Part shown: positions 22,785-63,633 of the stretch, piece by piece | Layout of the letters: every line of letters begins with the position of its first letter | How positions within the stretch are numbered: the first letter of the stretch is position 1 | Source of the DNA: Octopus sinensis | Taxonomy: Eukaryota | Assembly (NCBI RefSeq): GCF_006345805.1 | Contig: NC_043001.1 | Span: 124,310,001-124,374,000 of the forward strand | Length of the DNA: 64,000 nucleotides | Direction of reading: 5' to 3' | Notes under the pieces: generated by a model | What the model was told of the DNA's origin: nothing | Seen by the model: only the letters and a program-made list of their open reading frames with translations | The model's database searches: none | Program-made: the position numbers and the translations under genes

Positions 22785-23050
22785 TAAATAATGAGGGAGA
22801 TAAATTAATATTAATTTTAATATCGATTTAAAACCAGTAGTCTAGCATACAAAAAATCTGAAGAAATCAGAGAAAATTCTAATATATGTGTATACTGGCA
22901 GGGCAAGACTGCTAGATAGTCGGCCGTATGCTAGAAATAGATCATCAACGATCAAACTACAAAGAAAGTTCTCTAGAGGAAAAATTCAGCGAACACCAGA
23001 ACCAAATTTGGCGGGCAGGACAGATATAAATTTTCATCTGTCCATACACA
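22785..23050 (-). mobile_element. Penelope-like 3'-terminal fragment between (TA)n arrays
   Basis: Carries the shared terminal junction motif GTAGT/ACTAC with CTAGCATAC/GTATGCTAG. Confidence 0.6.
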
Positions 23051-24301
23051 TTATACATATATATATATATATATTATATATATATATATTATATATATAT
23101 ATATATATATATATATATATATATATATATATATATTATATATATATATATATATATATTATATATATATATGTGTGTGTGTGTGTGTGTGCGAGCAAAC
23201 ACACACATACTGGTATAAAACAGTGAGATGAGTGTTCAATATAGCATAGGTTGATTCCCTTCTTTACGTTAGGAAAATATTTCTGAGTATAGAGTGTACT
23301 TCCCTAATATTAAAACATATTTGTCGTGGATTTCGAGAATTTATGAAATTATTTATATGTAATATATCAGGTAATTTCAGTTACAACAAGTAACCTTTGT
23401 TAGATGTTACTCCACGTTTCAAATAACATGCACAGGTAATGATTACATTTAATACTTTAGAAATGAACAGGAAGAGAATTGGAGAGAGAATGAGAAAGAG
23501 AGAGAGGGGGCAGAGGGAGAGATACAGAGAGAGAAAGGTACAGAGAGAGAGAGAGAGAGAGAGAGAGAGAGTGAATCAGACGTTGAACATTTGTCCAATG
23601 CGCAGAGGCACAGCAATGCAACTGAATATCTCTAGGAAATGTATCCAGATACAAAACACAGAACTTTGCAAAGATATAATTTAATAAATATGACAGCAAT
23701 TTCGGTTCTTACCGTTATGGCGATTTCTTCAATATGAAAATATACTGTGTTTAGTTATAATATTAAGACAAAATCGTGATCCTTTATCATGTTGTGCAGG
23801 TCTTGTTTCTCCTTTTTTATTCTTAGCTGTCTTATATTACGAGTAATTGAAATACTGGTGAACATGCATTTTCAATATCTCTTATGTTAATCTGTCAGAT
23901 TTGTTTTTACTTATCTTATTACAAAGCTACAGACATGTATGTTAGTATAGAAAGTTATCCGAATCTCCCACTCACAGTCATTTTCTGTAATATTTTCAAT
24001 CTATGCAATGATAAAAATAAGTTTGTTCAAACCTAGGAACTCTATGCTGGAGGATGGATATTTTTACGACCTGAAATGGAAAGTATCTTGATAAAATTTC
24101 TTGGATGGATACAATCAGCAACAGCAAACTGAGAGGCATCAATACCAACTATAATATTAACGCCAGAAATTCTGGAACTTACAAAAGTCTGCAGTAAAAG
24201 TTTCATAATGAATAAGAACGAGGAAGTGTTCTTATCGTTGGATACTAGTACACCATGCTGACGTTCAACAGCAAGTTTTTCGCACTTACTTCTTAAAATG
24301 A

Positions 24302-24687
24302 TATAGGAGCACTCCGTCGGTTGTGACGATGAGGGTCCCAGCTGATACGATCAACGGAACAGCTTGCTCGTGATATTAACGTGCAAGTGGCTGAGCATTC
24401 CACAGACACGTGTACCCTTAACGTAGTTCTCGAGGATATTCAGCGTGACACAGAGTGTGACAAGGCTGGCCCTTTGAAATACAGGTACAAGAGAAACAGG
24501 AAGAAAGAGCGAGAGAAAGTTGTGGTGAAAGAGTACAGCAGGGATCACCACCATCCCTGCCGGAGCGTCGTGGAGCTTTTAGGTGTTTTCGCTCAGTAAA
24601 TACTTACAATGCCCGGTCTGGGAATCGAAACCGCGATCCTCCGACCGCGAGTCCGCTGCCCTAACCACTGGGCCATTGCGCCTCCAC
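24302..24687 (-). mobile_element. SINE family A, full length
   Basis: 11-bp TSD TCTTAAAATGA at 24291-24301 and 24688-24698. Confidence 0.93.
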
Positions 24688-26616
24688 TCTTAAAATGAAC
24701 TACGGAAGGCGAAAGCGAAATGTCATACGGAATACACTTGACTCGTTCTGGTCCACACGTTTCTTCTGAATACGTAGGAAGCAATCGAAAAAAAGAAAGA
24801 AACATCCATGCTGTTCTTTTCTCGTCTGAACCAAAGAGACATCTAGCAGAAATGGGATTTCTCCTCCAGTCCGTTGAGTATTCTTGAATATAAGGAGAAT
24901 GTTAAACCTACAAAACTGCATTCATCTAGGACTTCACCAGACTAATACTTCCAGTATTAACTGTTGGATAAATATAATGAGTTTATCTCATCCATTTTTC
25001 ATACTTCCGCTGCCTTGAAACCCGGGGTCCGTTCAATCCAAGCGTGATGAAGTTTCGACGAAAACCATTTCTGCACGTGTTGGCTCATTCACTGATGCAC
25101 CAATAGCACGCTGTGCATCTTTCCATAATTTTCCAATGGAAGTACCTTGGTATAGAGAACAATTACAAAAAAGGCGCAGAAAAATGGAATATTGTTGGAA
25201 TAGTTTTCATCCATCAGGTGATCTCAACTTTTACATTTAGTTATGCATTTTACCAAAATCTGCAACGGTTTTCAGAATTAGCGCTTAGTTTTCCTACTAT
25301 TCCAACTCCAGCACGTGTGTTTTATGTTGCAGTTGTCTGTTGACTTTTCTGAATTGAGCATAACTTGATCAAATTCTGGGAGAGCTTGGCTGCTCAAACA
25401 TTAAAGCCATTTCTATGTTTCTCGTTTGCTTGCTAAACTCAGTTTTAGCTGAGTCATTCACTCTTCTGCAAAGCTAAAGTAATTTCCTTATATACACCCT
25501 GGCTTTTGTAAGACTTCCTACGATCCTAGAGTATTATCAGTAACTCTTTGTTGAATGGTCTTTATATTCGTATCTGCAAACATTTCTGTTCTTCTGCCAT
25601 TCTAATAGACTTATGGGGCCTGGCCTTTCTGTTTAGAGATAACCGATGGTTCTCGTTTACCTAAACATTTGGCTTTTTGTGCACACTTCATCTCCCATGT
25701 ACTATCTACGTCACCCCAGCTTCTTCTGCTAGTTATGATGTAATCTAGGAGATCTCAATACGGTGTTGCTGATAATATGGCTGAACTTGGAGTACAAAAT
25801 TAGAAGTTTCAACTACATTTCTGCACTTCTTGTGTTGTGATCACTAAAATCCCCAATTATTTTTAGCTTGTCTCTCCGAGTCACTGTGCATACGGTCATT
25901 CTTAGAGTAATATAAAGCTTTCATTTCGCTTCAGCAAAGCACATCATTGACGATGCGTAAACACTGATCAAGTTGCATACGATCCCTTCGTAATAAGAAA
26001 TCTTAATCGCAATATTGACCAGTAATAGCATTTAGTTCATGTATTAATTTCTTAATAATATAATTCTACGTCTTATGATACACCTAATCACAAACTCTAC
26101 TACGCGTAGTTTTTTTACTCCAACATCATTGTATCGCACACCGAGATGATATCATATTCTTGCAGGTTGAATTCACAGAGATGTTATATTGATGTTCATT
26201 CTTTCAAAACACAATGCTGCTATTACATCTTTCCTCACAGGTCAATCGACCTCACATCTTTCAAGCTACGTTGTGACAGTCCATTGACGAAAGAAGGCCC
26301 TCTATTTCTAGCAGTATAGTGACTTCTTTTATGCTATACAGAGTAGAGGAAAGTCAGTAAGTTACTTCGAATCCTAGAAAGCGAAAGATACATCAGAAGT
26401 TTGGGCTATCGATATCTATTTAACGGGAAAGCTTACACAATATATAAATGATCAAATTTTTTGCAATTATCTGCAGCAATCCAGTGGTGAGCTGCGGATT
26501 ACTCAGTTGGAAAGGCTACACTCAGATACTATCTTTATATGTGCAGTGCAGCTGGTAGTATGACGTGCCCAAAGAAGGGCATCACAGTGACACCTATGCA
26601 TATAATTAGGTCTTTT

Positions 26617-61615: not shown

Positions 61616-61698
61616 ATATATATATGTATGTAAGAATGTTTTGCGTAATAAGATAAAAACCAAGTCGGTGTAGATATTAGAGCATTTATAAATAGAAG

Positions 61699-61750
61699 GT
61701 CTTACAGCTGTTTCTAGGATATTTATTAACAATATCCCTTCATCGGAGAC
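61699..61750 (-). ncRNA. Type I hammerhead (U4C), palindromic stem III
   Basis: GTCT-CCGATGA-A GGGATATT...AATATCCT A-GAAA-CAGCTG-TA|AGAC. Confidence 0.7.
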
Positions 61751-63435
61751 AGTGTGAGAGAATAGTTAAGTCATAGTTAGTTTCGATGTGATACAAAATA
61801 GAGAGTGGGGTGGAAGACAGAAAATAGATGTAAGATATGTATGGGTATTGAAGTTGTAAATCTGTTTTATAGGCATGATATGCAATATTCCAATATTCTT
61901 TGAGTAAAATCCAAAAGTCCATCAGAGATTAATATGAGTCCTTCCAAATATAGAGTTTATAAGCAATGTAAGAGTCCCTTATGAGTGAGATCCAGCAGAT
62001 TTTTAAACTTGGTCATTCCCAGTAGAGAATTTATATACAGTACTTTAAATAAAAACCTGTTTTTTGCAACACTGTTCTGTCAGAGTGAAAACCCTTCAGG
62101 GATCACATTTTTTTATTTAATATCTCCCCTAAATATCAGGGCCATGCATGCTTACGTATCAGAAGAAATCTTTATGCACAATAATTGCAATGAAGCAGTG
62201 AATAAAGGCGCCAATGTCCAACAGTACTAAAGAATAATAATGTTTAATGGTAACTCAGAATAGTCTCTGAAACTATTACTTGATCATATAACACTATAAT
62301 ATAATAATATCATATAATAAAAGTTCATAACTCCACTTCTCCGGTGATAACAGTTGCCTTATATGTTAACATACTTTAATAATCGGACAAGTAGTTATTT
62401 AAACGTATATTTTTGCTAGACAGAAGTTGTTACTGCATAACATATAGTAAATAGCTTTAATTTAGAAGCTGAAACCTGCCAAGTTACACCTGTCAGTTGC
62501 ATGTTCTCGATCTCTATCTGTGCCAATATCTTATTGAATTCATATACCGCATCATAATGATGTACCCGAGTACTCATCTACGTCGATGTTATTTTCAGTG
62601 ATACACAACATGGTACTGAGAACATACAAATGCAAATGGGGCAGAGAATTCTAGCGCGGCGGATTCGAACACATTTCGGTAGCAAATACTTGATTATGAT
62701 ATTATGGTTATGCACAATCGTTTCTATGAATATAAAATATGAATCATACAAAAATAAGCCAAAACCATGCCAACCTTTTTGAAGTTAGTATGACTTGTAG
62801 TACGTATCATAGTTTTGCTAGTTGCTTTAGTGACTTATGTAGTCGCTCTAGAACATAAACACCTACTCTCGGCTCTCCTACACTTGGTCCAACAGAACTT
62901 CCTCGGTGTAAAATTTAAAGAGACATAGAACATATAAACACTCGATCGATAATCAATTCAGCTTGGTAGACTTGTCATCTATAAAATAATTTAATTACTC
63001 TAGGAAACAATGCATCCTCGGTTTAAGAAACGAACTTACGGTCATATGATCGTGAGCCTATTAACCTGAATGCCAGGGTACAAGTCTTCACTATAGTTAA
63101 AATACTAGTATAAAAAACATTGCAGACTTCTTCCAGTACGTAAATACCAATATTTTTGCCATAACTTTATTTACTTATTCTTCCTCTATACAGCTGACTC
63201 TTAACTTAAACATTTTCATAGATTGAACTGTTTCACGATGCCCAATCCACTGTGAATGATGTTTGAGGTTTGTTAATACAGTGAAACGTATTTACTGACA
63301 TACGTATAAAAGAGGTATATTCTATCAAAGTACTAGCAAGCAATGGTTGGCAGTCGAAATAGTGAATAACCTACACACACACACACATACATATATACAT
63401 ACATATATATATATATATATATATATATATATATA

Positions 63436-63633
63436 AAGTCAAAATAAGGGTGAAAAAATTGAATATTAATTTAATAACACCAATCTGAACACCAAGTGGT
63501 CTAGCGTATAAAAGACTGGGATTCAGTAAAATTATTAATACAAAACAATGAGAGAGAATCCACTATGTGGACGCTCTAACGCTAGATATAGATCCGTAAA
63601 GGGAATCCACCACCAAAGAATTGTTCTCAAGGA
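63436..63633 (-). mobile_element. Penelope-like 3'-terminal fragment between (TA)n arrays
   Basis: Shared junction motif GTGGT/ACCAC with CTAGCGT/ACGCTAG. Confidence 0.6.

Follow-up and report, generated by a model that had tools for sequence, protein, structure and literature searches.

Penelope-like elements (PLEs) encode reverse transcriptases (RTs) that form the sister group of telomerase, and how these enzymes select an RNA and generate one-sided tails and inverted arms is an open question. In the literature accessible to us, PAc (Poseidon) is the only system to have been reconstituted, and its RNA element has been defined by truncation alone. As its accessible text describes, the PAc RT binds RNA immediately 3' of the hammerhead and initiates at two internal positions, and the stretch between them corresponds to the genomic tail; both target strands are extended, and a dimeric form of the enzyme is predicted (PMC11167929). 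In the accessible sections of two earlier studies, a tail that often occurs on one end only of inverted insertions is presented as general for PLEs (PMC8557442, PMC3846280). Metazoan retrozymes without long terminal repeats (non-LTR retrozymes) are tandem units that lack an open reading frame (ORF), carry a type I hammerhead, occur as monomers and arrays, and have been proposed to be mobilized by PLEs; the accessible parts of these accounts describe neither a conserved 3' RNA structure nor paired two-site ends (PMC7229834, bioRxiv 10.64898/2026.07.22.740005). Here we describe a three-helix junction motif carried by five fragments in a 64,000-nucleotide (nt) stretch of the Octopus sinensis genome (NC_043001.1, positions 124,310,001 to 124,374,000 of the forward strand; the window). 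The fold appears to be a real and so far undescribed cis RNA structure of Penelope-mobilized retrozymes, and on balance we favor the reading that it is a conserved 3' RNA signal, bound in trans by a Penelope-like RT, that sets two copying start sites.

The fold predicted from the sequences consists of a junction of helices P1, P2, and P3, one hairpin module inside P3 (site B), and a second module after P1 (site A). An initial annotation of the window had described the interior of P3 as a long variable insert. This insert is structured: it opens with a hairpin (P3a) followed by CU and a UA tract, and it closes with a short hairpin (P3b). The terminal hairpin P4 repeats the closing signature of P3a (G..C, then CU and a UA tract). 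The P1 and P3 strands named in the annotation are present at their coordinates on the minus strand, with one reassignment at 61 kb, where the proposed P3 5' strand, CTGGCAT (61149-61155), partly coincides with the P3a 5' strand in both the family fold and the fold of the window copy; the homologous strand is TCGGCGT (61158-61164). The annotation did not recognize the motif as a described one, and Rfam covariance models likewise gave no match over it, either in the window at E≤1 or at 10 family loci at the gathering score. The fold is also not described in the literature that we searched, with subscription journals, figures, and bioRxiv supplements outside our reach.

As the annotation had proposed, the helices covary across families. 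Among 18 family representatives, which by our reading make up about five lineages, 191 of 194 pairs in P1 and P3 are kept, and two-sided changes occur at 7 of 11 positions. A covariance model built from four families found further families in fetched DNA. In the alignment of 29 model matches, 89% of the cells pair and the covariation score (0.278, versus 0.199 when shuffled) lies above all 500 shuffles, although P1 is misregistered in this alignment and related rows inflate the score. Loops, linkers (UAUUU, UAUAU, and CCUCU in different families), and hairpin stems have turned over with pairing kept, including in lineages without detectable DNA similarity, and the P3 core is kept largely as sequence, with almost no change at positions 3, 4, 5, and 7. 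At P3 positions 2 and 6, 89 copies contain 25 G·U against 2 A·C cells in a search that admits both equally. This excess favors RNA of the hammerhead-bearing strand. Earlier G·U counts (11 to 2 and 59 to 9) were partly biased by the search patterns and are superseded by this one. Unconstrained folding of 17 representatives produced P1, P3, P3a, and P4 together in 10 by our reading, while six copies that are worn or truncated show only part of this fold or a different one. The variant that had been noted in the 565-bp unit (family F565) retains P3, P3a, and P4, whereas P1 is missing from its minimum-energy fold. A loosely defined three-way-junction descriptor finds matches throughout the window, so that the stems by themselves are weak evidence; the case is carried by position, family conservation, and covariation. 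In one further family (F132; loci L132 and L261), P3b is capped by a C-UUCG-G tetraloop, an extra-stable RNA loop, which fits an RNA-level role.

A similarity search of the genome (2.72 Gb, rich in microsatellites) assigned the five window fragments to five high-copy repeat families, one each, that insert into (TA)n. The searches gave 1857-3098 first-look candidates per family, figures that are not copy numbers, and 40 scored candidates for each of the five families yielded 47, 43, 44, 51, and 52 scored matches. Across the genome, the J23+P3 pattern matched 3556 times, against 4 for its control, with about 20 false matches among the first 100 listed (18 antisense chance matches in an RTE long interspersed element [LINE] and 2 unrelated). 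A variant of the pattern with the CCUCU linker had 4221 matches versus 9 for the control (2 of the first 30 loci were unrelated), and one for the 565-bp variant had 1704 sites versus 1. Motif density is uneven, with one strong match in 400 kb of unselected DNA versus five insertions in the window; a strict pattern had no match in metagenome contigs, which says little about other animals. The four fragments that the annotation called dissimilar do represent separate repeat families, but not all families are unrelated, since F132 aligns to F22 (75%) and to F63 (70-79%).

Full units of 358-565 bp were recovered from tandem copies for seven families. A type I hammerhead, with core, stems, and cut site identified by script and by eye, is present in all seven, and none has an ORF, the longest sense stop-free stretch being 38-69 codons. 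The units are ~67% A+T over their entire length, and a tblastn search with 122 PLE proteins found no match to them. The carriers, dispersed as single units and as arrays, are ORF-less, hammerhead-bearing, nonautonomous non-LTR retrozymes; the young families among them (96-99% identity) keep the fold intact. None of the hammerheads of the window is reported by the Rfam search. The annotation had placed the motif downstream of a hammerhead at 44 and 61 kb. At 44 kb this holds (44342-44398), but at 61 kb the hammerhead had been misassigned: that of the motif lies on the plus arm (61432-61486), whereas the one at 61699-61748 on the minus strand is part of a neighboring element, with a (TA)n run between it and the motif. 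This second hammerhead (flank to ~61625) is of the minimal type I form and has a palindromic stem III, and its element ends ~75 nt further in (TA)n without the motif.

The motif occupies a fixed place relative to the 3' ends of the elements, where the annotation had put it. The model gave 23 full-length matches beyond its training set, and a TA signal follows immediately in 20 of them, versus 8% of random windows, although the AT-rich 3' columns of the model may slightly favor this signal. In a set of insertions from six families, 190 of 219 3' ends are TA flanked. The hairpin module with G..C followed by CU occurs at site B in 14 of 18 representatives, at site A in 16, and at both sites in 13; the corresponding frequencies in shuffles are 4.5%, 2.1%, and 0.1%. 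The two modules are 88-123 nt apart, and (TA)n mostly starts 2-20 nt behind the hairpin of one or the other. The distance from the hammerhead cut site to the hairpin is 116-183 nt for B and 213-277 nt for A in seven families. It thus varies by more than 60 nt between families, whereas the distance from hairpin to end is short, which indicates that the ends follow the hairpins and not the ribozyme.

The ends are also paired. The six-family set was assembled from BLAST pieces of ≥82% identity and ≥35 nt, with clusters ≤60 nt from a locus edge dropped and some segmental duplicates remaining. It contains 66 two-arm (head-to-head) insertions among 154, and a single tail-to-tail one. With one arm mostly preselected at A by the queries, 51 of the 66 end at A and B, 13 at A and another position, 1 at A twice, and 1 at B twice. 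When loci were instead chosen by a pattern that lies 5' of both sites (first 30 loci), all seven two-arm insertions end at A and B, and of the 21 terminal arms, 10 end at A and the other 11 at B. The window itself contains two insertions with two arms (17879-19598 and 61028-61614), and both have one end of each kind. Truncation at the 5' end, partial tandems, and head-to-head inverted arms are present, as expected for Penelope-like mobilization. Classical L1-type twin priming was rejected, as both arms copy overlapping sequence and the arm junctions do not map to site B. Two related observations come from other copies. About 40 kb before the window, at least 24 retrozyme units of ~477 bp form a head-to-head array that has one end at A and the other at B (L165-L167), and in many copies of this family (F477) the P3a hairpin is itself tandemly duplicated, with ends following the second copy.

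On the favored reading, several steps, namely, RNA binding, use of a dimer, circular templates, and priming, are ones that we infer. Tandem units would be transcribed, cut by the hammerhead, and perhaps circularized, and the junction would dock an RT-endonuclease, possibly as a dimer. The enzyme would nick both strands of a (TA)n run, after which each nicked 3' end would pair with a UA tract and prime cDNA, with one start at A and the other at B. The resulting pair of truncated cDNAs would then be joined head to head, and the ~100-nt A-B interval would be left as a one-sided tail. A link to a specific Penelope RT is suggested by the anatomy of the insertions. The proposal of the initial annotation, a cis RNA element for RT recognition or priming in PLEs, remains the best reading of the function and is made more specific by the second end site, which lies inside P3 behind an equivalent hairpin, whereas the carriers proved to be nonautonomous retrozymes and no protein-coding carrier was found in the families sampled. 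Such a signal would show concretely how animal retrozymes borrow Penelope-type enzymes and would be a candidate for RNA-templated insertion tools; the natural variation here yields a secondary structure that can be tested, a pair of equivalent start modules, and insertion records in the thousands. We put forward more tentatively, as possible rather than probable, a pseudo-twofold RNA scaffold in which a telomerase-like junction on a single RNA, which may be circular, would load a Penelope RT dimer and present two copies of one start module, one per nicked strand. If so, an RT-recognition RNA would be defined here for the first time in a Penelope system, one that would also provide a portable tag for two-strand insertion and that may have evolved in retrozymes as a mimic absent from the helper.

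The octopus retrozymes resemble PAc and the tailed PLEs, as far as these are described in the accessible text, in several features: a cis region lies directly 3' of the hammerhead, starts occur at two sites, the tail is found on one side, targets are AT rich, and arms are joined head to head. In contrast, PAc starts in an AC-rich stem-loop inside its ORF (PMC11167929), whereas the retrozyme RNA is noncoding and U rich, and the PLE tails described are 30-40 nt long, versus 88-123 nt for the A-B interval. A further difference, drawn from a comparison with PAc that does not include its published fold figure, is that both sites here follow an equivalent hairpin-CU module. The CR4/5 domain of telomerase RNA and the yeast three-way junction likewise offer a three-helix junction as the binding site of an RT of the telomerase/Penelope clade (PMC4993307, accessible text). 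The octopus motif has no sequence or Rfam match to telomerase RNA, and neither a P6.1-type loop nor a fixed internal template was seen in it; the likeness is one of functional analogy only, not of membership. In stringent LINEs and their short interspersed elements (SINEs), which have a 3' stem-loop and a short-repeat tail, and in the R2 3' untranslated region, a structured 3' element is followed by a low-complexity priming tract and is used in trans by nonautonomous elements. Those systems have one start site and no inverted arms, whereas the octopus retrozymes have two modules and paired ends.

We searched for an autonomous partner with Neptune-like, Hydra-like, and Nematis-like queries and with Pfam GIY-YIG queries, scoring the best 150 candidates per search, and read four loci of further Hydra groups to their ends; these clade labels derive in part from linker motifs compared with PMC8557442. 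Model matches inside the loci of protein-coding elements turned out to be neighboring retrozyme copies. No 3' sequence shared with an autonomous RT/GIY-YIG element was found in the families sampled, Naiads not being among those searched. By comparison, 24 of 57 Xenopus families are linked by sequence to an autonomous pseudo-LTR (pLTR) in the accessible part of that report (bioRxiv 10.64898/2026.07.22.740005), and no such link was found for the octopus families. A back-translated short Poseidon-type motif matched at background level (261 matches versus 316 for the control). A GC-rich family among the pattern matches was rejected as the autonomous partner, being the antisense strand of an RTE LINE ORF.

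Several points weigh against a 3' signal for a Penelope-like RT. No protein-coding element with the motif was found among the Neptune-, Hydra-, and Nematis-like families sampled, and the 3' ends of these elements have a different sequence. Several of them show two ends without the fold, which indicates that starting at two sites does not in general require it. In 4 of 18 representatives the strict module is absent from site B, and (TA)n microhomology blurs the exact start by several bases. The strands behind the count of 191 in 194 pairs were located by patterns that favor pairing, with the P1 register of F565 set by hand, and the relatedness of families means that pair counts overstate the number of independent events. 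Of the 16 G·U cells at P3 position 6, 13 come from one family. Folding z-scores do not separate the strands (the antisense is lower in 10 of 17 representatives), and the window copy at 61 kb folds no better than shuffles (z = -0.79).

Among the protein-coding elements, a very young Neptune-like family (L155 4324-6756, L125-L154) carries open frames of 811 codons along with a degenerate hammerhead, and its two 3' ends lie ~40 nt apart. Several Hydra-like families (L183-L212, L121, L458-L461, L011) have canonical hammerheads and Asn-rich inserts; in some, two ends lie 70-155 nt apart with long-hairpin 3' folds of their own, and some have a YUYAAUU stretch before the distal end in common with retrozyme site A. 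This shared stretch may be a weak hint at a Hydra-type helper. A Nematis-like family (L333-L362) has a microsatellite-rich 3' untranslated region and two ends ~55 nt apart.

We considered whether the fold might instead serve the RNA's own life, through circularization, stability, or escape from decay, ADAR, or PIWI-interacting RNA control, with the RT starting at two exposed UA tracts. Metazoan retrozymes do form stable circular RNAs with self-paired folds (PMC7229834, accessible text), both start sites are UA rich, such that microhomology alone could prime, and autonomous elements with other sequences also show two ends. However, units that are AT rich throughout have ends that cluster at only two places, and the same G..C-CU signature at both sites, together with the one-arm-each pairing, needs a geometric or protein-binding cause. 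We regard this explanation as rather unlikely.

It is also conceivable that the fold binds the enzyme while the ends are made at the DNA level, by endonuclease resolution of an intermediate and not by two primings. Craig et al. ascribed the tail most likely to endonuclease-mediated resolution (PMC8557442, accessible text), and both ends are AT rich, like the ATT sites cleaved by PAc (PMC11167929); the hairpins could form in single-stranded cDNA as well. The PAc data, in the text accessible to us, nevertheless put the tail between two RT start sites (PMC11167929), and the G·U excess fits sense-strand RNA, though G·T in a DNA strand of the same sense is possible. Two primings at A and B thus seem preferable to us, and resolution at the DNA level unlikely.

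Inheritance of the fold from a common pLTR ancestor, as a relic without present function, would accord with the visible relatedness of several families and with a P3 core kept largely as sequence, but pairing has been kept despite the turnover of loops, linkers, and hairpin stems, even in lineages without detectable DNA similarity, and young families keep the fold intact, making this very unlikely. The junction might also be another, so far unknown ribozyme or a ligase that generates the RNA ends at A and B, since it is compact and adjoins a known ribozyme, its U-rich linker is conserved, and its P3 core is invariant. This is hardly credible given the lack of an Rfam match, the variable linker, ends spread over several UA-tract bases instead of one bond, and arrays that read through both sites many times.

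Table 1. Positions of the retrozyme copies and their predicted structural elements in the window
Feature	Position(s)	Strand	Remark
F22 copy	22782..23040	-	5'-truncated; ends at site A in (TA)n; full copies have 546-bp unit, type I hammerhead
F22 P1	22956-22960/22837-22841	-	junction span 22837..22960
F22 P2	22940-22953	-	
F22 linker	22935-22939	-	UAUUU
F22 P3	22926-22934/22842-22850	-	
F22 P3a	22902..22925	-	hairpin (GGCC..UGCC), then CU; family copies end 5-6 nt behind, at (TA)n start (site B)
F22 P3b	22857..22871	-	short hairpin, 5' of P3 3' strand
F22 P4	22796..22835	-	terminal hairpin (GG..CC), then CU and UA tract; site A
F44 copy	44110..44420	-	358-bp unit; hammerhead 44342-44398
F44 P1	44269-44272/44162-44165	-	
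F44 P2	44248-44262	-	
F44 P3	44234-44240/44166-44172	-	
F44 P3a	44222-44233	-	shortened in window copy
F44 P3b	44183-44195	-	
F44 P4	44128-44159	-	
F63 copy	63436..63635	-	523-bp unit
F63 P1	63609-63613/63496-63500	-	
F63 P2	63591-63607	-	
F63 P3	63579-63585/63501-63507	-	
F63 P3a	63553-63577	-	
F63 P3b	63515-63527	-	
F63 P4	63449-63493	-	
F61 minus arm	61028..61215	-	468-bp unit; ends at site A
F61 minus arm P1	61184-61188/61070-61074	-	
F61 minus arm P3	61158-61164/61075-61081	-	5' strand/3' strand
F61 minus arm P3a	61131-61153	-	
F61 minus arm P4	about 61038-61069	-	
F61 plus arm	61214..61614	+	same head-to-head insertion; 5' half of motif; ends at site B in (TA)n
F61 plus arm hammerhead	61432-61486	+	
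F61 plus arm P3a	61576-61598	+	
F565 minus arm	17879..18793	-	one full 565-bp unit and part; ends at site A
F565 minus arm hammerhead	18169-18231	-	
F565 minus arm P3	18018-18027/17936-17945	-	
F565 minus arm P3a	17992-18017	-	
F565 minus arm P4	17898-17930	-	
F565 plus arm	18803..19598	+	ends at site B in (TA)n
F565 plus arm hammerhead	19337-19399	+	
F565 plus arm P3a	19551-19576	+	

A GTAAGT splice-donor sequence occurs in the hammerhead stem II loop of the F22, F63, and F477 units (L064, L109, L165) and just upstream of the hammerhead in F61 (L043). It recalls the intron in the pLTR of Penelope, and the motif may lie in a retained intron. In contigs assembled from sequencing runs of unrecorded library type, which cannot show strand or ends, no splice joint was found at the F22 donor, and for F565 only a 102-nt deletion variant was seen.

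The window also contains other features. At 63698-63774 (plus strand), another hammerhead-bearing element without the motif ends between TA runs, and a similar end is present in L099. A tRNA match with a GCC anticodon lies at 37099-37169 (plus strand; Rfam, 60 bits), and 3' fragments of a non-LTR element with a restriction-like endonuclease lie beside (TTA)n runs at 45261-45896 and 56668-56997 (minus strand).

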